Shown here: positions 7,235-14,707 of the stretch, in pieces
How positions within the stretch are numbered: the stretch's first letter is position 1
Layout of the letters: each line of letters begins with the position of its first letter
UHGV virus genome: UHGV-1773351
Length of the DNA stretch: 15,158 nt
Reading direction: 5' to 3' (one strand)
Source: a virus
Notes under the pieces: generated by a model
What the model saw: the letters and a program-made list of their open reading frames with translations, nothing else
What the model was told of the DNA's origin: nothing
The model's database searches: none
Made by a program: the position numbers and the translations under genes

Positions 7235-8452
7235 TTATCCTTTCCGTTTACGGGCTTCGTTAATTTGTGTCTCAAGAATGCTTCGCGCCTGCGCGGTGGC
7301 AGCGGCCTTGTCCATTCCCTGACTCATGAAAAACTTTATGAGGTTGTTCGCCTGCGTTTGCAGGGCTTTTTTGAGAGCGTCGGCTTCAGCGCGAGCTTGG
7401 GCTTCCCTCACCCGCGATGCTTTTAGTTCGGCATTCTTCCTGTTTGCCGTGGTGCGAGCTTTTTTTAACAACCGGCGAACGTTGTCCGTGGCGCTATCTT
7501 TGGCGCGTAGTTTTTTGCCTAATGCATCCTGAGATTTCAGATATAACTCATACTCACGCGCCGCTTTAGCCTGATCCGTCGTTGTTGTCCGGTTGCGCGC
7601 GAGTGATTTAGCCAGTTCGCCTTTGAAATAGGTTGTTGTCTTCCGCTTGTCATCGCCGAAGGCCACCTGTTCAGCTGCTTTTTCCAGGGCAATAATGATG
7701 GCCTTGTGCCATGTGGGAGACTGAAAACGCGTCATAGCGTGCAATACATGTTTGCAGGCTACACCAGTCAGATCAGGGTTGCGGATCTTGGGGAATGCAT
7801 ACTCTTTTGGCGGCGCGACAGCATAGTTACCAGCCGTGGCCATATAACGATACCAGTATTGATGGCGTCCACAATCACAGTCGAAAGATACCCGGCCCTT
7901 GCAGAGATCGGCAGCGATTCGGGCTTTTTTCGCACCGTCTTCAGCAATTTCCTCAACGGCTTTATCCCATTCCTCAAATCGAATTCTGACACGATGATGC
8001 TGGTGGACCGACTCATCCGAGGCATTAACAGATATCAATGCAAGGTTGTGTTTTAGCCCGAGGAATGTCGCGGCTTTGATCCCTGTGCCATCAGAAACTT
8101 TGTTGTTAGCGCGTTTTATATCAATGCTGGTGGACTGCGCCACCAGCTGAGCATAGGTAATGCCGGGTACCGTGCTCTTGAATTTGGTTTTATGAGCCTG
8201 CCTTGAGGTGTTGAAACTGCGTATATCTTCGGGCGTAAAGTAGGTGCCATCTTTCTTTTTCCCAAGGCTGAGGAATGCCTCAAGTTCGCGGTTACGCATC
8301 CCCATAATCTTTGGGGTGAGTGTACGCCGCGCGTTTCGCCGATTCTGACGCTGCTGTTTACGGATAAGATCGAAGACCTTGTTAAAGTCTTTTGCACTTA
8401 ATCCATCGGTCTGATAGCGACCAAGGTTGTCGCGAGCATATTTAGTTGGCAT
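7235..8452 (-). CDS. basic, coiled-coil-rich protein with a SWIM-like zinc-finger motif (405 aa)
   Basis: AAGGGA 5-6 nt upstream of the ATG. Lys/Arg-rich N- and C-terminal regions. Central FDCDCGRHQYWY ... VACKHVLHA gives a CxC-xn-CxH arrangement. Confidence 0.7.
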   Translation of the reverse strand: MPTKYARDNLGRYQTDGLSAKDFNKVFDLIRKQQRQNRRNARRTLTPKIMGMRNRELEAFLSLGKKKDGTYFTPEDIRSFNTSRQAHKTKFKSTVPGITYAQLVAQSTSIDIKRANNKVSDGTGIKAATFLGLKHNLALISVNASDESVHQHHRVRIRFEEWDKAVEEIAEDGAKKARIAADLCKGRVSFDCDCGRHQYWYRYMATAGNYAVAPPKEYAFPKIRNPDLTGVACKHVLHAMTRFQSPTWHKAIIIALEKAAEQVAFGDDKRKTTTYFKGELAKSLARNRTTTTDQAKAAREYELYLKSQDALGKKLRAKDSATDNVRRLLKKARTTANRKNAELKASRVREAQARAEADALKKALQTQANNLIKFFMSQGMDKAAATAQARSILETQINEARKRKG

Positions 8453-8461
8453 TCAATTCCC

Positions 8462-8839
8462 TTACGCAATGGATAATGTCCCTATTACCTGGCCGTCATA
8501 TTGGAAATGGCGAATCATTTCGCGGATCCAGGTGGCAGGTGGGAGTTTTAATTTTTTGCCAACAGTCATACCCTGAAACTCATCCTCAAGCCCGGCGGCG
8601 AGCGTCACAACCCATCGTAGCTCTGCTATGCCCCACATACGGTAAGCCAGCAAATCCGGGCGATATTGCTCATCGGGAAGAACGTAATAAATCGTCAGAT
8701 TCTTGTCGTTCGATTCACACATAAGCATCACCTCTTTGCGCAGCTCTGCCCTGAGTATTGGATCGGCTATGTTGCGGTCGTCATACCGCGACAGAGGATA
8801 TTGCCGGGTGCTTTGGGTTGTAGTGATTGATGTAGCCAT
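8462..8839 (-). CDS. hypothetical protein (125 aa), first gene of the leftward operon; possible LysM-like fold
   Basis: ORF with ATG at complement of 8837-8839. The segment YYVLPDEQYRPDLLAYRMWGIAELRWVVTLAAGLEDEFQGMTVGKKLKLP loosely resembles LysM / tail-X-type domains. Confidence 0.6.
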   Translation of the reverse strand: MATSITTTQSTRQYPLSRYDDRNIADPILRAELRKEVMLMCESNDKNLTIYYVLPDEQYRPDLLAYRMWGIAELRWVVTLAAGLEDEFQGMTVGKKLKLPPATWIREMIRHFQYDGQVIGTLSIA

Positions 8840-8912
8840 AGTCAGCCTGCCAGAAATATATGATGGTGATTCTACTGCTAGTCATTTGTTGAATATTTAA
8901 CTTAATAAAAGA

Positions 8913-8929
8913 AAATTATTAGTGCAATT
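8913..8929 (-). promoter_or_regulatory. C1-operator-like 17-mer (ATTGCACTAATAATTTT on the minus strand) in the divergent control region
   Basis: 15 of 17 matches to the recalled P1 C1 operator consensus. Lies between the divergent operons starting at 8839 (minus) and 8986 (plus). Confidence 0.4.
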
Positions 8930-8985
8930 CACATTGTGAAATGTATCATTCTGCCATTAAGTAGGTTCTTCACGAGGAAACAAAA

Positions 8986-9231
8986 TTGGCAGAACGTGTT
9001 GATGATGCAGAGCTGAGCATGAATCAGTTAGAAGCTCTCAAAGACATGGCCATCGATAACATCAGAAAGCAGGCACAGGTCGTGAGCCAGGTATTTACAG
9101 GGAAGTGTCGTTACTGCAATGAATCGATTGAATCAGGCATTTATTGTGACGCTGAATGTGCGCAATGGCACAGGGAAGAGCAGGCCGCAAAACAGCGTAA
9201 ATATGGCATGCGACCGGCAGGATTTGACTGA
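8986..9231 (+). CDS. small C4 zinc-ribbon protein (DksA/TraR-like cysteine arrangement) with an N-terminal helical segment
   Basis: TTG start with GAGGA 7 nt upstream; an internal ATG (MNQLEALK) is an alternative. Cysteine motif CRYCNESIESGIYCDAEC. Confidence 0.6.
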   Translation: MAERVDDAELSMNQLEALKDMAIDNIRKQAQVVSQVFTGKCRYCNESIESGIYCDAECAQWHREEQAAKQRKYGMRPAGFD

Positions 9232-9233
9232 TT

Positions 9234-9812
9234 ATGTTGCGCTTTACTGAGGAAGAGTTTCAGGCTTTTAGTGAGCGTCGAAATAAGGGGCGGTCCAGGC
9301 CAAAAACCAAAAAGGATCCATTCTTATCGCTTGCGCCGGTAAAAGAAGTTTCTCCACATGCGAAGGCACTTGCAGCACTGGCAAAGAACCCAGACCTGCG
9401 CGACGGAAATTGCGAGCACTTCGAGCAGGTTTTCATTTTTGATTACTTCGAACGCAAGCACCCTGACATCTATGAGCTGTTGCATGCAACGCCTAACGGA
9501 GGGAAACGTTCAAAAGCAACCGCCGGGAAAATGAAGGCTGAAGGGCAGAAAAAAGGTTATCCGGACATGAGTCTCGATAAAGCATGCGGTATTTATCACG
9601 GCATGCGAATTGAGCTTAAAGAACCAAATGGTAAAGCCCCGACGAAAGAGCAGATCGCCTGGATGCGCAGGCTTAGAGAGGAAGGTTACTACGTCGTTCT
9701 TGCGTATGGTGCAGAACAAGCGATAACCGCCATCCTGGAATACATGAGCCTTAAAAAGGGTGAGGCTATTGAGCATGTATTGAACGGTGACAAGTGTTTG
9801 TACGCTACGTGA
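9234..9812 (+). CDS. VRR-NUC domain nuclease (PD-(D/E)xK superfamily)
   Basis: C-terminal region GYPDMSLDKACGIYHGMRIELKEPNGKAPTKEQIAWMRRLREEGYYVVLAYG matches the VRR-NUC pattern (Asp, then E-x-K, then a helix and beta strand). Start lies 2 nt after the previous stop. Confidence 0.7.
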   Translation: MLRFTEEEFQAFSERRNKGRSRPKTKKDPFLSLAPVKEVSPHAKALAALAKNPDLRDGNCEHFEQVFIFDYFERKHPDIYELLHATPNGGKRSKATAGKMKAEGQKKGYPDMSLDKACGIYHGMRIELKEPNGKAPTKEQIAWMRRLREEGYYVVLAYGAEQAITAILEYMSLKKGEAIEHVLNGDKCLYAT

Positions 9813-9879
9813 AATAATAAATTAATTAGTGCATATGTGTATCTTTGATACAGCGCACATTAACATCGGGAGAATAATC

Positions 9880-10035
9880 GTGTCATCCAAGGCTAATTAT
9901 GAATCGCTGGCATCGATCATGCCGCGTAATGAACAGGAAGCAGATGCTGTAGTGGACCCGGTAATCGCTGAAATGAATGCTCGCCTGGAGGCTGAATTTG
10001 CAGCTGAGAATGAACATACCACCCAGGGCGACTAG
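9880..10035 (+). CDS. small hypothetical protein (about 51 aa from GTG 9880)
   Basis: GGGAGA 7 nt upstream of GTG 9880. The ORF-track start at 9829 is a GTG with no Shine-Dalgarno in an AT-rich spacer. Confidence 0.35.
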   Translation: MSSKANYESLASIMPRNEQEADAVVDPVIAEMNARLEAEFAAENEHTTQGD

Positions 10036-10639
10036 GACTGTTTTTTGTGTCGGTAGCGGTCCGTCACTCACTCGTGAGGACTGTGCTGCTATAGAAAAAA
10101 CTGGCTGTTCAATCATCGCGGTTAACAATTCCTGGCAGATGTTCGATGACATTTATGCCTTATACGCCGGTGATTTGTCATGGTGGAAGCAATACGGATC
10201 CACCATACCGGGAGGGAGATTCCGCAAAGTGACAGCCAACCTGGCGGCGGCGAAATCATTTTCGTTGGAGTACAGGCGATATTGTGGACCGGCTGAAGGG
10301 GTTAATAGCGGCGCGCAGGCTATCAGTCTGGCGGCTGAATCAGGGGCTGAAGTAGTTGTATTAGTCGGCTATGACTGTTCTCTGCAAAACGGCCTTCATT
10401 GGCATGGAGCACACCCTCAAGCACTACGGAATCCAACGCAGGTGTCTATTTCAAAATGGCAACAGCAGTTCCTGGATACCCGCAAAAAACACGCAGATTT
10501 ACATATTTTGAATGCAAGTAGGAGCAGTGCAATTCAATGTTTCCCAAGAATAAATTTAGAGGCAGTGATCGCGTTATTATCGTCGGCAGTGGCCCAAGCG
10601 CCGCAAACTTTGTTGCGCCGCGCGGAGTGCCGATTATAG
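10010..10639 (+). CDS. GT42/DUF115-like (Cst-II sialyltransferase / Maf / MptE-like) putative CMP-sugar transferase, paralog A
   Basis: N-terminal VFCVGSGPSL, then IIAVNNSWQMFDD and NSGAQAISLAAESGAEVVVLVGYD, collinear with Cst-II motifs as I recall them. Start chosen at ATG 10010 to give the same N-terminal length as paralog B; the ORF-track start is 9977. Confidence 0.5.
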   Translation: MNIPPRATRTVFCVGSGPSLTREDCAAIEKTGCSIIAVNNSWQMFDDIYALYAGDLSWWKQYGSTIPGGRFRKVTANLAAAKSFSLEYRRYCGPAEGVNSGAQAISLAAESGAEVVVLVGYDCSLQNGLHWHGAHPQALRNPTQVSISKWQQQFLDTRKKHADLHILNASRSSAIQCFPRINLEAVIALLSSAVAQAPQTLLRRAECRL

Positions 10640-11163
10640 CGGTCAATGGGGCCATAGACTGGCTTAACCGCGCTTCTTATTTTTTCACCCTTGATCCATC
10701 GCCAGACAATATGCGGCGCGTTGGTCGTGGCCGCCGTCGCCGTGGTGTTTGTTATTGCATGGCGCTACCCGATGTTAAAGAACGTGAGGTCAGAGACGGC
10801 GTTCTGTGCTTCCGTCGTGTGGCTGAGCGCGGCACGGAGCCAAAAAATACGAATTCTCCCGAGTGGTGGGCGTGGCGCTGGTCCGCACATTTCGGCCTTT
10901 GCGAAGATGAGAATGAAATTGCCAGCGGCAATAGTGCATATGGTGCTCTGAACCTGGCTTTCCATATCGGATTCAAACATGTCGCCCTGGTGGGCGTTGA
11001 CGCTACACAAGAACCACGCGTTCACTCCGGCGGCACGCCAAAAAATCTAAGTCACCTGCCTTTGTTATTCCAGTCTGCGCGTGAACAGATTGACGTTGTT
11101 TCATGCGGGAAAATGGGAGGTATTCCGCAGATGACTCTTAAAGAATGGCTGAAGAATACATGA
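10537..11163 (+). CDS. GT42/DUF115-like putative CMP-sugar transferase, paralog B
   Basis: [21 protein letters not shown] and [24 protein letters not shown] parallel paralog A. AGGAG lies about 12 nt upstream of the ATG. Overlaps paralog A by 103 nt in another frame. Confidence 0.55.
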
Positions 11164-11837
11164 TGGCACCAACAATTTATCACCGTATCGACGGTACCAA
11201 ATACAGGAATATCTGGGTTGTTGGTGATCTGCATGGTTGCTACAACAGACTGATGTCCGAACTCCATCGTGTGGATTTTGACCCGGCGCAGGATTTACTG
11301 ATATCGGTCGGCGACCTTATCGATCGCGGTACTGAAAATGTCGAATGTCTGGAACTATTGCAGATGCCCTGGTTCAGGGCAGTGATGGGGAACCATGAGC
11401 GGCTGATGATTGATGCGTTAAGTCCAGATGGCAACGTGAATAACTGGCTAATGAATGGCGGACAATGGTTCTTCATGCTGGACACTGATCAGGAAATATT
11501 AGCTAGGGCGCTGGTGGAGCTGGTAAAGCGTCTGCCCTATATCATTGAGTTGAACACCGGGCAAGAAACTATCGTTATAGCCCATGCCGACTATCCGGAT
11601 AATGAATACCAATTCGGTAAGGAGGTGCCGCTTTTCAACGTTGTCTGGGCGCGCGAGCGTATCAGTGATTCGATGGATGATATTGGTGGCGAAATTTCGG
11701 GCGCAGATCGTTTTATCTTTGGTCACACTCCGGTGAAAAGCCCGAAGACATTCTGGAATCAGCATTATATCGATACTGGTGCCGTATTTTGCGGAAACCT
11801 GACATTGATGAAAGTGAAAGGTGATGGTGCAGCATGA
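11145..11837 (+). CDS. Ser/Thr protein phosphatase, lambda PPase (PPP) family
   Basis: Canonical PPP motifs GDLHGCY, GDLIDRG and GNHE, plus near-collinear similarity to lambda phosphatase ([12 protein letters not shown] ... [13 protein letters not shown]). ATG 11160 overlaps the upstream stop in an ATGA arrangement and is an equally plausible start. Confidence 0.85.
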
Positions 11838-12535
11838 AGATTGCTTTAGTTCTTCGCTCTGGTGGTGACTATAACGCTTCCGATGTGCAGTGGCTGGTTA
11901 ATCAACTGCCAAAAGGCTATGAAATTATTTGCCTGACAGACCTGAAGCGTTTACATGTACCTGGCGTCAAAGTTGTCCCATTGATCAACCAGTGGCAAAA
12001 GTGCCGTGGCTGGTGGGCGAAAATCGAGTTGTTCCGACCGGATATAACCGATGATCTGTTCTATCTGGATTTGGACACGGTTATTGCCGGTGATATACGC
12101 CCAATCCTTGAGAATCCACCAACCAGCTTCACCATGCTTAGGGATTTTTACCATCCACAATATCGTGGTAGCGGTGCCCTGTGGATACCAAATAGTGTAA
12201 AAGCGCATATCTGGAGTTCATTCTGGCAAGATCCGGAAGGTTGGATTGCTCGTTGTGTTACTACTGAATGCTGGGGTGATCAGGGGTTTTTGCGGAAGGT
12301 TATGGGTGATGATACACCAGCATTTCAGGATCTGTATCCGGGATGGTTTGTAAGTTACAAGGCCGATGTTGTGGAACCTGGTTCGAAATATGCGAGCGCG
12401 CGTTACTCCAGGGGGAATGGGGCATTACCAAAAGACTGCCGAATAATCTTTTTCCACGGCAAACCGCGACCTCGCGAAGTGTCAGAGGATTGGCTTCCCC
12501 TTATTAGCTCGTTTTTTGAGCGAGAATCAGAATAA
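11834..12535 (+). CDS. hypothetical protein, possible GT-A fold nucleotide-sugar transferase (DxD-like motif)
   Basis: ATG overlaps the phosphatase stop (ATGA). The motif [19 protein letters not shown] resembles the DxD region of GT-A transferases; this is a motif-level guess only. Confidence 0.55.
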
Positions 12536-12536
12536 T

Positions 12537-12553
12537 ATTGCTCTAATAATTCC
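12537..12553 (+). promoter_or_regulatory. C1-operator-like 17-mer (ATTGCTCTAATAATTCC) overlapping a sigma70-like promoter
   Basis: 14 of 17 matches to the recalled consensus. Part of a conserved 30-bp module (ATTGCTCTAATAA-N6-ATTTTTAAAAC) repeated at 14678; within it TTGCTC and TAAAAC are spaced 17 nt apart. Confidence 0.45.
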
Positions 12554-12561
12554 ATATTTTT

Positions 12562-12591
12562 AAAACGTGATGTACACTCATCACGTTTTTT
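12562..12591 (+). terminator. rho-independent terminator after the 11834-12535 gene
   Basis: 11-bp perfect stem AAAACGTGATG/CATCACGTTTT with loop TACACT, followed by a T6 run. Confidence 0.7.
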
Positions 12592-12602
12592 ATTAGAGCA
12601 AT
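12586..12602 (-). promoter_or_regulatory. C1-operator-like 17-mer in inverted orientation (ATTGCTCTAATAAAAAA on the minus strand)
   Basis: 14 of 17 matches. Inverted partner of the 12537-12553 site, giving a roughly 66-bp palindromic unit around the terminator hairpin. Confidence 0.4.
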
Positions 12603-14171: not shown

Positions 14172-14678
14172 TTGAGTATTTTCAATAAACATGCACACCA
14201 GGAACGTCCGTATATCGTCATAGTCGATATTGATGGAACAATATCAAAGGCAACTGAAGACAGACTGCATTTGCTTCCGCCACCAGGTAAAGGTGCATTA
14301 ACAAAGGACTGGAACGAGTTTAATCTCGCCTGTGACACCGATACTCCCATCACTCCAGTTATTGATATGGTGCGCCAGTTATTTAACGTTTACACGGTCT
14401 GGTTTGTAACCGGGCGCTGTGAGATCGCAAGGGATAAAACACGAGCCTGGCTGCGGAAGTACGTAACAAACGGGGCTGAGCCTTTGCTATCTATGCGTCC
14501 TGCCACCGATGACAGAAATGACGGCCCAGCAAAGATTGATCTCCTTAAGAAAATTGGTCTAAGTAAAATCGCGTTCGCGCTGGAAGATAAGATTGAAGTG
14601 GCGCGTGTTTTCAGGAGGCACGGCGTGCTTACGTTAATGGTCAGGGAGTATGAAAATGCGCTTCTTCACCAACAATAA
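14172..14678 (+). CDS. HAD-superfamily phosphatase (DxDGT motif; resembles polynucleotide 3'-phosphatase / nucleotidase-type domains)
   Basis: TTG start with a strong GAGGAGG 5 nt upstream. Motif I IVIVDIDGT and motif II-like WFVTGRCE. Confidence 0.7.
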   Translation: MSIFNKHAHQERPYIVIVDIDGTISKATEDRLHLLPPPGKGALTKDWNEFNLACDTDTPITPVIDMVRQLFNVYTVWFVTGRCEIARDKTRAWLRKYVTNGAEPLLSMRPATDDRNDGPAKIDLLKKIGLSKIAFALEDKIEVARVFRRHGVLTLMVREYENALLHQQ

Positions 14679-14707
14679 TTGCTCTAATAAATCTTGATTT
14701 TTAAAAC
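14678..14707 (+). promoter_or_regulatory. C1-operator-like 17-mer (ATTGCTCTAATAAATCT) with overlapping sigma70-like promoter; second copy of the 30-bp module
   Basis: 16 of 17 matches to the recalled consensus. Same 30-bp module as at 12537 (13 + 11 identical positions, same spacing). Confidence 0.5.

Follow-up and report, generated by a model that had tools for sequence, protein, structure and literature searches.

Organization of the pmgL-pmgM locus

The window analyzed here, the whole of a 15,158-nucleotide stretch of viral DNA (UHGV-1773351), is DNA of a P1-like phage-plasmid (Punavirus). Its identity to phage P1 is ~98%, and positions 8400-10700 share 97-99% identity with P1, P7, and other P1-like phages. 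The two adjacent genes considered in this report are pmgL and pmgM, which are already known, hitherto uncharacterized, and dispensable (Table 1). In the original prediction, made from the letters of the DNA, neither the identity of the window as phage P1 nor that of the genes as pmgL and pmgM had been recognized. Its account of the layout, with two open reading frames 2 nt apart at the head of a rightward block, is exactly right in both coordinates and spacing: the TGA stop codon of pmgL (9229-9231) is followed by the two nucleotides tt and then by the ATG of pmgM. The pair opens the rightward pmgL...pmgQ block and diverges from gene 26 at the promoter region LP26/LPpmgL. In the P1 record, the late operon that includes pmgL and pmgM adjoins baseplate and tail genes.

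The coordinates of the divergent, Lpa-dependent late promoters are an annotation transfer from the P1 record AF234172; in the window this region is 98% identical to P1, with the -22 box and both -10 elements unaltered. The “operator-like site” noticed earlier upstream of the pair proved to be the C1 repressor operator O26 (formerly Op82), which is annotated in P1 and agrees with the C1-operator consensus with two mismatches. Four matches to this consensus were found in the whole window, compared with 0.07 expected by chance. O26 overlaps two predicted σ70 promoters, P2pmgL and P1pmgL. A generic promoter and terminator scan called no strong σ70 promoter upstream of pmgL, leaving the weak P1pmgL and P2pmgL uncalled, and no terminator in positions 8800-10000. 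A further C1 operator, Oppp (formerly Op83), lies between pmgM and pmgN and agrees with the consensus in 13 of its 17 positions, too few for a scan allowing three mismatches. The ribosome-binding site of pmgL ends 6 nt 5′ of its TTG. The P1 record also gives an alternative ATG start for pmgL, at window position 9019, from which translation would produce a protein lacking the acidic tip described below.

Table 1. Features of the pmgL-pmgM locus, in window coordinates
Feature	Positions	Strand	Description
Gene 26	8462-8839	-	Diverges from pmgL-pmgM
Late promoters LP26 (leftward) and LPpmgL (rightward)	8869-8897	both	Divergent, Lpa-dependent; transferred from AF234172
-10 element of LP26	8869-8874	-	Transferred from AF234172
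Shared -22 box of LP26/LPpmgL	8879-8887		Transferred from AF234172
Promoter P2pmgL	8889-8916		Predicted σ70 promoter
-10 element of LPpmgL	8892-8897	+	Transferred from AF234172
C1 operator O26 (former Op82)	8912-8928	-	ATTGCACTAATAATTTT; annotated in P1
Promoter P1pmgL	8922-8949		Predicted σ70 promoter
Ribosome-binding site of pmgL	8974-8979	+	GAGGAA; read from sequence
pmgL	8986-9231	+	TTG start, 81 aa
PmgL acidic tip	9001-9018	+	D6-D-A-E9-L-S11; aligned to TraR D3-E-A-D6-E-A8
PmgL Cys4 zinc module	9106-9159	+	CxxC-x9-CxxxC; codons begin at 9106 (C41), 9115 (C44), 9145 (C54), 9157 (C58)
Open reading frame, +1 frame	9119-9250	+	43 aa; C-terminus of natural frameshifted pmgL alleles
pmgM	9234-9812	+	ATG start, 192 aa
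PmgM catalytic core codons	9414-9653	+	E61, D111, E127, K129, Q140
E61 codon	9414-9416	+
D111 codon	9564-9566	+
E127 codon	9612-9614	+
K129 codon	9618-9620	+
Q140 codon	9651-9653	+
C1 operator Oppp (former Op83)	9819-9835	-	Between pmgM and pmgN; transferred from P1

PmgM is a stand-alone VRR-NUC nuclease

By its sequence and modeled fold, PmgM is a VRR-NUC nuclease (PD-(D/E)xK type) that stands alone and comes closest to psNUC (PDB 4QBL), and the earlier assignment of the second protein to this class is borne out. The core of the protein spans residues 57-175, with an N-terminal extension of ~55 residues ahead of it. Comparison with 4qbl by sequence (phmmer) gives an E-value of 8e-17, and in a Foldseek search with the AF2 model (pLDDT 88) the same structure ranks first (E 2.5e-10, target-normalized TM-score 0.83, rmsd 2.3 Å), followed by 4qbn and 4qbo. 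PmgM matches the phage protein families phrog_2363 (2e-129) and phrog_5702, annotated “Holliday junction resolvase” (5.8e-27). Its score against the Pfam model VRR_NUC (PF08774), 21.2 bits, is slightly below the gathering cut-off of 23.8 bits, and a precomputed table assigns PF08774 to many homologues at 44-74% identity.

The residues expected to carry out catalysis, whose lack of conservation had been named in advance as grounds for abandoning the nuclease assignment, are uniformly retained: all 76 full-length homologues, which are 37-97% identical to PmgM, have E61, D111, E127, K129, and Q140, and they have Q65 as well. D111 lies in the motif GYPD, and E127 and K129 in IELKEP. In the alignment with psNUC, PmgM has the same GYPD and ExK motifs and the same glutamine at Q140 (psNUC ...TPAQ...); this VRR-NUC-specific glutamine bonds to the catalytic lysine (PMC4103454).

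Comparison with characterized relatives defines the subtype. Like psNUC from Psychrobacter, which was described together with stNUC and saNUC (Pennell et al. 2014, PMC4103454), PmgM stands alone and has the same fold. psNUC is a dimer that binds Holliday junctions at sub-nanomolar affinity and cuts them symmetrically (PMC4103454). Both proteins have a short helical “stalk” between β1 and β2. In the AF2 model of PmgM a single helix of nine residues (94-102) connects strands 83-85 and 112-114, which places the protein in the psNUC “stalk” type, without the dimerization-blocking insertion of the FAN1 type. The two differ in that PmgM has the ~55 extra N-terminal residues and a stalk ~10 residues shorter. 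Eukaryotic FAN1 belongs to the same catalytic domain family and gives weak Foldseek matches (E 0.07-1); unlike PmgM, it is a monomeric, multidomain 5′ flap nuclease in which an insertion of two helices, of ~10 and ~18 residues, blocks dimerization (PMC4103454). The N-terminal extension of PmgM begins with a conserved RF..E(E/W), continues with a basic linker, and includes a helix (residues 41-51); it is kept in homologues that occur without PmgL. The genes of distant PmgM homologues adjoin those for an annealase, a helicase loader, a repair exonuclease, and a methyltransferase, as well as a terminase-like gene.

PmgL is a divergent relative of TraR

The product of the first gene had been described as a C4 zinc-ribbon protein. 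Its four zinc-binding cysteines are real and invariant in the 22-24 members of the PmgL family, which share 26-61% identity and in which D6 and G39 are invariant as well; the generic ribbon gives way to a more specific assignment. As judged from profile comparisons, PmgL belongs to the TraR/DksA family as a divergent member with a short loop and is a distant relative of TraR. It matches phrog_54, “DksA-like zinc-finger protein,” at 1.6e-12, as does TraR of the F plasmid (2.2e-20). The PmgL family profile, searched against the PDB, finds TraR (5w1s_M, E 0.0047) as its top match, and hhalign aligns the PmgL and TraR families over 64 columns with 96.1% probability (E 3.1e-9) and the PmgL family and the TraR of VP882 with 93.6%. 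The TraR family model TIGR02419 is matched by 8 of 22 PmgL family members, and not by PmgL itself. Pfam PF01258, which VP882 TraR matches at 2.7e-11, finds neither PmgL nor any of 24 family members, so that this short-loop branch of the TraR family escapes Pfam.

The AF2 model of PmgL (pLDDT 77.7) consists of an N-terminal helix (7-32), the Cys4 module, and a C-terminal helix (56-73) that follows the zinc module and aligns to the TraR C-terminus in the hhalign alignment. PmgL shares with TraR the order of helix, Cys4 module, and C-terminal helix, as well as the location of the acidic tip motif at the very N-terminus, and like F TraR, λ Orf73, P2 Orf82, and VP882 Orf61 (PMC9239242) it is a small protein of a temperate phage or plasmid. 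Transcription is reprogrammed by RNA-polymerase-binding TraR homologues from λ, P2, VP882, and other sources, and Orf73 increases λ yield 3-4 fold (PMC9239242).

In several respects PmgL departs from a canonical TraR. The zinc loop is seven residues shorter than the CxxC-x17-CxxC of TraR, with a second knuckle of the form CxxxC, and the corresponding seven-residue gap in the hhalign alignment drops TraR residues 46-52, including R48, which contacts the rim helices of RNA polymerase, and R49, which contacts β′ Si3 (PMC9239242). The tip reads DxxExS in PmgL, as opposed to DxxDxA in TraR, and is preceded by five residues rather than two, that is, by three extra; the canonical DxxDxA is found in most distant members of the PmgL family. 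In TraR, DxxDxA (D3, D6, A8) is needed for function, and homologues with an imperfect motif are less active (PMC9239242).

Structural searches with the PmgL model gave no significant TraR or DksA match, either against the PDB, where DksA ranked 14th (E 4.7), or against BFVD, where a DksA/TraR-type protein ranked 43rd (E 1.3). The best PDB matches, none significant, were MYND and YacG treble-clef fingers, and those in BFVD were otherwise small uncharacterized phage proteins and a DUF2116 protein. A kinship with the gyrase inhibitor YacG was rejected (hhalign 7%). Pfam/NCBIfam matches of PmgL to VATC (E 0.009) and a crotonase model (E 0.035) are sub-threshold noise, and three long proteins matching PmgL were dropped as spurious, being repeated zinc-finger-like arrays, probably eukaryotic C2H2.

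Conservation of the two genes

A pmgL-like neighbor is present at 23 of 23 IMG/VR loci whose PmgM is at least 75% identical. At the 56 IMG/VR loci with a PmgM homologue of no more than 57% identity, no PmgL-like or TraR-like open reading frame lies within 2.5 kb, and none is present at loci L002-L007, which also carry PmgM homologues. The adjacency of pmgL and pmgM is confined to the P1 lineage, apart from four lineages beyond P1 in which the genes adjoin with a gap of 1-2 nt: L041, L009/L010, L008, and L014, a distant one with identities of 57% for PmgM and 35% for PmgL. Elsewhere, PmgL-like genes adjoin a dUTPase-like gene and other unrelated genes; the loci of two PmgL-like proteins (P0143 and P0145) are on short metagenomic contigs with little gene context.

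Comparisons in which dS is unsaturated, as it is not in most pairwise comparisons of these genes, give dN/dS values of 0.08-0.16 for pmgL and 0.12 for pmgM, showing purifying selection on both. All 23 IMG/VR P1-like loci have an intact pmgL. Public P1-like sequences include pmgL frameshifts at no fewer than six different positions. One of these alleles, a single-A deletion at 9103/9104, occurs in four independent assemblies and in 17 contigs; in five of the six places inspected the 192-aa pmgM beside it is intact, and the sixth contig ends within pmgM. In the assemblies of some frameshifted entries neighboring genes are also broken, and those frameshifts are probably sequencing errors. The recurrence of natural frameshifts in pmgL suggests weak or conditional selection. 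The +1-frame open reading frame that forms the C-terminus of the frameshifted alleles is probably no gene of its own.

Both genes can be lost. In-frame deletions and CRISPRi knock-downs of pmgL and pmgM are viable; the in-frame deletions are in the strain list of the deletion study PMC9024508, and another source, citing that study, gives both genes as non-essential. Among pmg deletion mutants without a plaquing defect anti-restriction activity is unchanged, and morphogenesis requires only pmgA, B, C, G, and R (PMC9024508).

Alternative explanations

Several features could suggest that the two proteins work together, as the original prediction proposed in having the zinc protein regulate or target the nuclease. 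Just 2 nt separate the genes, without an intervening terminator; they adjoin in lineages as distant as L014; and in phage VP882 a cI-repressed TraR homologue and QisA, the product of the adjacent gene, form a complex that arrests host growth (bioRxiv 10.64898/2026.07.27.740977). The VP882 system resembles the P1 pair in being a repressor-controlled phage-plasmid operon in which a TraR homologue is found beside a protein of ~200 aa, with the gene order opposite to that of pmgL-pmgM; QisA was rejected as a relative of PmgM (hhalign 0.08%). The adjacency in four further lineages and the VP882 complex thus leave some room for a functional link. Against it are the absence of any PmgL-like neighbor from the 56 more distant IMG/VR loci and from L002-L007, the occurrence of the PmgM N-terminal extension where PmgL is missing, the unrelated neighbors of other PmgL-like genes, the retention of intact pmgM beside frameshifted pmgL, and the ability of stand-alone VRR-NUC proteins to cut junctions unaided (PMC4103454). 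Taken together, these observations make it unlikely that PmgL works as a zinc-ribbon subunit of PmgM, whether by regulating, inhibiting, or targeting the nuclease, and the earlier proposal is not upheld. Versions of this explanation in which the two act jointly, with PmgL docked on RNA polymerase to tether, recruit, or license the resolvase, perhaps where R-loops form or transcription and replication collide as the phage genome is copied, or in which the pair forms a C1-controlled growth-arrest module like QisA-TraR, have the same adjacency and the VP882 precedent as their rationale and are more doubtful still. Most likely, PmgL and PmgM are functionally independent accessory factors that share an operon by chance.

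A different type of explanation is that PmgL is a decaying relic of a TraR-like gene, no longer acting on RNA polymerase and hitchhiking in the operon. The lost R48/R49 loop, the altered tip, the frameshifts with their widespread single allele, and the non-essentiality of pmgL all fit such decay; the low dN/dS between lineages, the invariance of D6, G39, and the four cysteines at 26-61% identity, the intact genes at the IMG/VR loci, and the probable origin of some frameshifts in sequencing error fit it poorly, and it is unlikely. A role in defense or anti-defense had also been raised for the pair, and in this sense the nuclease PmgM might be toxic or counter restriction, and PmgL might neutralize it or confer its specificity. 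Silencing of both genes by C1 in the lysogen would suit a toxin, and VRR-Nuc catalytic domains are found in toxic T6SS effectors such as TseV (PMC9635880). PmgM, unlike TseV, has no PAAR or other delivery domain and no adjoining immunity-type or defense-type gene; pmgM remains intact where pmgL is frameshifted; neither protein matches PADLOC at E ≤0.01, the PtuA/PtuB values of PmgL (E 0.014-0.028) being noise; and the unchanged anti-restriction activity of the pmg mutants without a plaquing defect points the same way. A defensive or toxic function is accordingly very improbable. The historical name “pmg,” for putative morphogenetic function, implies that the proteins are virion components or assembly factors, as do the late promoter and the late operon with its adjoining baseplate and tail genes; with deletions that cause no plaquing defect, a short list of other pmg genes needed for morphogenesis, and two families whose targets are DNA or RNA polymerase, hardly any likelihood attaches to this implication.

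A model for independent accessory functions

The explanation that accommodates these observations with better than even probability is that pmgL and pmgM are independent accessory genes of a P1-like operon, encoding a resolvase of the psNUC type and a divergent TraR-like factor. We infer that PmgM resolves junctions, that PmgL binds RNA polymerase, and that neither depends on the other. The genes would be co-transcribed, from C1-repressed promoters that are off in the lysogen and from the Lpa-dependent late promoter. PmgM would most likely act as a homodimer on four-way or otherwise branched DNA, introducing paired nicks by means of E61, D111, E127, and K129, with Q140 positioning the lysine. 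It may in this way debranch P1 concatemers that are replicating or recombining, ahead of their headful packaging. This proposed role is like that of λ Rap/NinG, T4 endonuclease VII, and T7 endonuclease I, phage junction-resolving or debranching enzymes of unrelated folds. T4 and T7 depend on their junction enzymes for packaging; pmgM, unlike these, is dispensable, presumably because host resolvases substitute for it.

For PmgL, the most likely course, held with less certainty than that for PmgM, is that the N-terminal helix and acidic tip enter the secondary channel of the host RNA polymerase, so that the protein would modulate host transcription after release from C1, as λ Orf73 does. The absence of the R48/R49 loop and the DxxExS sequence of the tip may leave PmgL with weak or altered activity.

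Implications for P1 biology and the TraR family

P1 is the classic generalized-transducing phage. P1-like phage-plasmids are widespread: of 5426 complete Escherichia coli genomes, 571 contain the pmgL-pmgM region, nearly always on plasmids, some of which carry mcr-1. Both genes appear to be ordinary accessory genes, likely for a debranching resolvase and a divergent TraR-like factor, and neither the resolvase nor the short-loop branch would overturn current understanding. The map of P1 becomes tidier with concrete, testable functions for two of the “pmg” genes that still remained. If PmgM is indeed a debranching resolvase, the efficiency of packaging and of transduction may be affected by it, and PmgL, without the R48/R49 contacts, could reveal which features of TraR are truly needed for regulation through the secondary channel.

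Identity and regulation of the gene pair

The two open reading frames in which a zinc-ribbon protein and a VRR-NUC nuclease had been recognized agree with the original prediction in both coordinates and spacing, being separated by 2 nt (TGA-tt-ATG). A GAGGAA ribosome-binding site can be read from the sequence 5' of the TTG start of the first, the product of which has four cysteines spaced CxxC-x9-CxxxC, and the second encodes the motifs GYPD and IELKEP. A terminator scan of 8800-10000 found no terminator-like site. Positions 8400-10700 are 97-99% identical to phages P1, P7, RCS47, SJ46, and other P1-like phages, and the P1 genome record AF234172 names the genes pmgL and pmgM ("putative morphogenetic function"). 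Both are thus already known as P1 genes and are biochemically uncharacterized; RefSeq labels PmgM a "VRR-NUC domain-containing protein" in P1 and a "Holliday junction resolvase" in P7.

The operator-like site noticed upstream of the pair proves to match the consensus for operators of C1, the P1 repressor (four matches in the window, with 0.07 expected by chance), and is annotated in P1 as the C1 operator O26 (Op82). According to AF234172, this operator overlaps predicted sigma-70 promoters, divergent late promoters LP26 and LPpmgL lie near pmgL, and a second C1 operator, Op83, lies between pmgM and pmgN. Over this regulatory stretch the window shares 98% identity with P1, and the operator is preserved intact. 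The three remaining consensus matches correspond to the P1 operators OpmgRa, OpmgRb, and OpmgT, so that several segments of the "late" region are also directly repressor-controlled.

Features of the pmgL-pmgM region and its surroundings (window positions)
Feature	Position	Strand	Description
C1 operator O26 (Op82)	8912-8928	-	ATTGCACTAATAATTTT; 2 mismatches to P1 C1-operator consensus
pmgL	8986-9231	+	TTG start; 81 aa
pmgL 3' half	9089-9250		span includes the +1-frame ORF 9119-9250, which runs past the pmgL stop
pmgM	9234-9812	+	ATG start; 192 aa
pmgN	9880-10035		
pmgO	9977-10639		
pmgO, pmgP, ppp, pmgQ	9977-12535		same operon as pmgL-pmgM
OpmgRa	12537-12553		C1-operator match
OpmgRb	12586-12602		C1-operator match
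pap	14172-14678		acid phosphatase
OpmgT	14678-14694		C1-operator match

Among the neighboring genes of the operon, pmgO and pmgP encode two paralogous MptE-like (DUF115) sialyltransferase-like proteins, accompanied by a lambda-type Ser/Thr phosphatase and PmgQ (PHROG "glycosyltransferase"). Together with pap, further on, pmgO/pmgP/ppp/pmgQ look like an uncharacterized sugar- or phospho-modification cluster within a "morphogenetic" operon. CRISPRi scored pmgN as essential (efficiency of plating 0.014), whereas deletion showed it to be non-essential; because it overlaps the start of pmgO by ~59 nt, the CRISPRi effect is possibly polar or off-target.

PmgL as a divergent TraR homologue

Neither PmgL nor its family has a significant match in Pfam, but PmgL matches phrog_54, "DksA-like zinc-finger protein," over its whole length (1.6e-12), as does TraR, the RNA polymerase-binding factor of the F plasmid (2.2e-20). 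Searched exhaustively, a set of 1.8 billion representative proteins yielded 29 matches, from which frameshifted P1 alleles and zinc-finger repeat proteins were left out to give a family of ~20 small proteins (67-91 aa) with D6, G39, and the four cysteines invariant and, in most distant members, the canonical DxxDxA start. Compared with solved structures, the family profile matches TraR best (5w1s_M, E 0.0047), in an alignment that runs from residue 1 up to and including the first CxxC. In profile-profile comparison with the F-TraR family, 64 columns align at 96.1% probability (E 3.1e-9; PmgL 4-68/TraR 1-71), and TraR of the phage-plasmid VP882 gives 93.6%. The YacG zinc finger, a control comparison, reached only 7% and was rejected as a relative. 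The NCBIfam TraR model TIGR02419 is matched by 8 of 22 family members, PmgL itself not being one of them.

In the AlphaFold model of PmgL (pLDDT 78), helices at 7-32 and 56-73 flank the Cys module, which is the three-part layout described for TraR (PMC9239242). Foldseek with this model found no significant TraR or DksA match in PDB or BFVD. Several features set PmgL apart from TraR. Its zinc loop has 7 fewer residues, the alignment gap taking out TraR 46-52, including R48 and R49, which contact the rim helix and beta-prime Si3, respectively (PMC9239242); the second knuckle is CxxxC where TraR has CxxC; and the tip reads D6-x-x-E9-x-S11, preceded by 5 residues rather than 2. PmgL is thus a divergent, short-loop TraR homologue in which two functional marks of canonical TraR fail.

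Metagenomic proteins P0143-P0162 and those of related loci L011-L016 form a "short-loop TraR" family of 67-91 aa with a DxxDxA start and CxxC-x9/10-CxxxC; none of its 24 members matches Pfam PF01258, and 7 of the 24 show weak matches to DUF2116, "probable treble clef." The placement of PmgL in this branch of the TraR family, which Pfam misses, is new.

Lambda Orf73, P2 Orf82, VP882 Orf61, and other phage homologues bind RNA polymerase and inhibit rRNA promoters, and Orf73 raises lambda yield 3-4 fold, in a study of phage TraR homologues from which P1 is absent (PMC9239242). The best available hypothesis is that PmgL would act on the RNA polymerase secondary channel.

PmgM as a VRR-NUC nuclease

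PmgM scores 21.2 bits against Pfam VRR_NUC, slightly below the gathering score of 23.8. The VRR-NUC assignment is nonetheless right, as both phmmer and Foldseek lead to the stand-alone VRR-NUC structure 4QBL, that of psNUC. It is the sole phmmer match among solved structures (E 8e-17), with GYPD, the ExK motif, and a Gln matching Q140 identical. It is also the top Foldseek match (E 2.5e-10, target-normalized TM-score 0.83, rmsd 2.3 A) of an AlphaFold model (pLDDT 88) built on 76 homologues, followed by the other two stand-alone VRR-NUC structures and then, with much weaker scores, by FAN1. The catalytic residues, on the conservation of which the original prediction had staked this assignment, do not vary: E61, Q65, D111, E127, K129, and Q140 are invariant in all 76 full-length homologues (37-97% identity).

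The dimeric psNUC has sub-nanomolar affinity for four-way junctions, which it cuts symmetrically to ligatable products, whereas in FAN1 two helices inserted between beta1 and beta2 hold the protein in a monomeric state (Pennell et al., PMC4103454). In the PmgM model a single 9-residue helix is predicted at this point, as in the "stalk" type of psNUC. Unlike psNUC, PmgM carries an extension at residues 1-55, the early part of which is modeled at low confidence; homologues that lack PmgL have it too. Distant homologues adjoin genes for a Sak4-like annealase, a helicase loader, a repair exonuclease, a DNA methyltransferase, and a terminase-like protein, these being settings of replication, recombination, and packaging. 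PmgM is likely a psNUC-type junction resolvase and would most likely resolve or debranch replication and recombination intermediates ahead of headful packaging.

Pairing of pmgL and pmgM

The suggestion that the zinc protein regulates or targets the nuclease finds no support. In 80 IMG/VR loci with PmgM relatives, surveyed by six-frame search with PmgL-family and TraR-family profiles, an intact PmgL gene lies directly upstream wherever PmgM identity is >=75% (23 of 23 loci), versus no PmgL-like or TraR-like ORF within 2.5 kb at any of 56 loci with homologues at <=57%. Other assemblies have PmgL upstream of PmgM at 63% (L008) and 71% identity (L009/L010), and L002-L007 (~50-57%) are without it. 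A distant exception is the metagenomic contig L014, where 1 nt separates a PmgL-like gene (35% identical to PmgL; tip SDEIDRLA) from the PmgM homologue (57%) that follows it. Elsewhere, PmgL-like genes are followed by dUTPase-like or unrelated ORFs. In one natural pmgL allele, loss of a single A at 9103/9104 destroys the zinc module; this allele occurs on 17 contigs from independent assemblies and is followed by an intact 192-aa pmgM in five of the six places shown, the sixth contig ending within pmgM.

Taken as a whole, these findings argue that PmgM can do without PmgL. The pairing is newly recognized as restricted to one lineage, within which the two proteins might still, though less probably, interact. 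In VP882, a cI-repressed TraR homologue complexes with QisA, the product of the adjacent gene, and arrests host growth (July 2026 preprint). Because QisA and PmgM are not related, VP882 offers no more than a conceptual precedent.

Allelic variation and mobility

In public P1-like sequences, +1 frameshifts occur at at least 6 positions in the pmgL 3' half, all with loss of the Cys4 module and overlap of the pmgM start. The single-A deletion lies in GGGAAG, with neighboring genes intact; other alleles, from assemblies with many broken genes, are probably sequencing errors. Deletions in the database proteins P0125 and P0132 join the pmgL N terminus out of frame to mid-pmgM, and in P0001 and P0002 (266 aa; 9780-10035) loss of the pmgM stop gives read-through of the Op83 region into the pmgN frame and a PmgM-PmgN fusion.

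The region is present in 571 of 5426 complete E. coli genomes, where 566 of its 579 places are plasmid-borne. Because ~15% of the E. coli P1-like plasmids (about 85 of the 571 genomes) cover <80% of it, the pmgL/pmgM spot is suggested to be a recurrent site for cargo insertion. In the one example examined, the P1-like, mcr-1-carrying plasmid pSX48-4-mcr-1 (L017), pmgL is gone and pmgM is truncated beside IS elements; pmgL, together with the 5' half of pmgM (~8986-9499 equivalent), has given way to remnants of IS1, IS30, and IS3. In phage phi456, InsB adjoins pmgM. The pmgL...pmgQ block has also been exchanged as a unit among P1-like elements, following the gene 26 baseplate block in P1 and, in L008, L009, and L010 (PmgM 63-71% identity), a ~2250-aa DarB-like protein that carries methyltransferase and helicase domains, along with small ORFs.

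Role in the phage

A part in defense or anti-defense, also raised at the outset, is unsupported: neither protein matches a PADLOC defense model, and Gonzales et al. (PMC9024508), who deleted pmgL and pmgM in frame, reported pmgA, B, C, G, and R as the sole essential genes, the remaining mutants having no plaquing defect and unchanged anti-restriction activity. Likewise, in the CRISPRi assays of Piya et al., pmgL (efficiency of plating 1.3) and pmgM (0.38) were both scored non-essential. Where dS is unsaturated, dN/dS is 0.08-0.16 for pmgL and 0.12 for pmgM, and PmgL evolves faster (dN 0.38-0.63 versus 0.18-0.31). Both genes are real and evolve under purifying selection within their lineage. 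They are accessory; C1 represses them in the lysogen, and a late promoter serves them as well.
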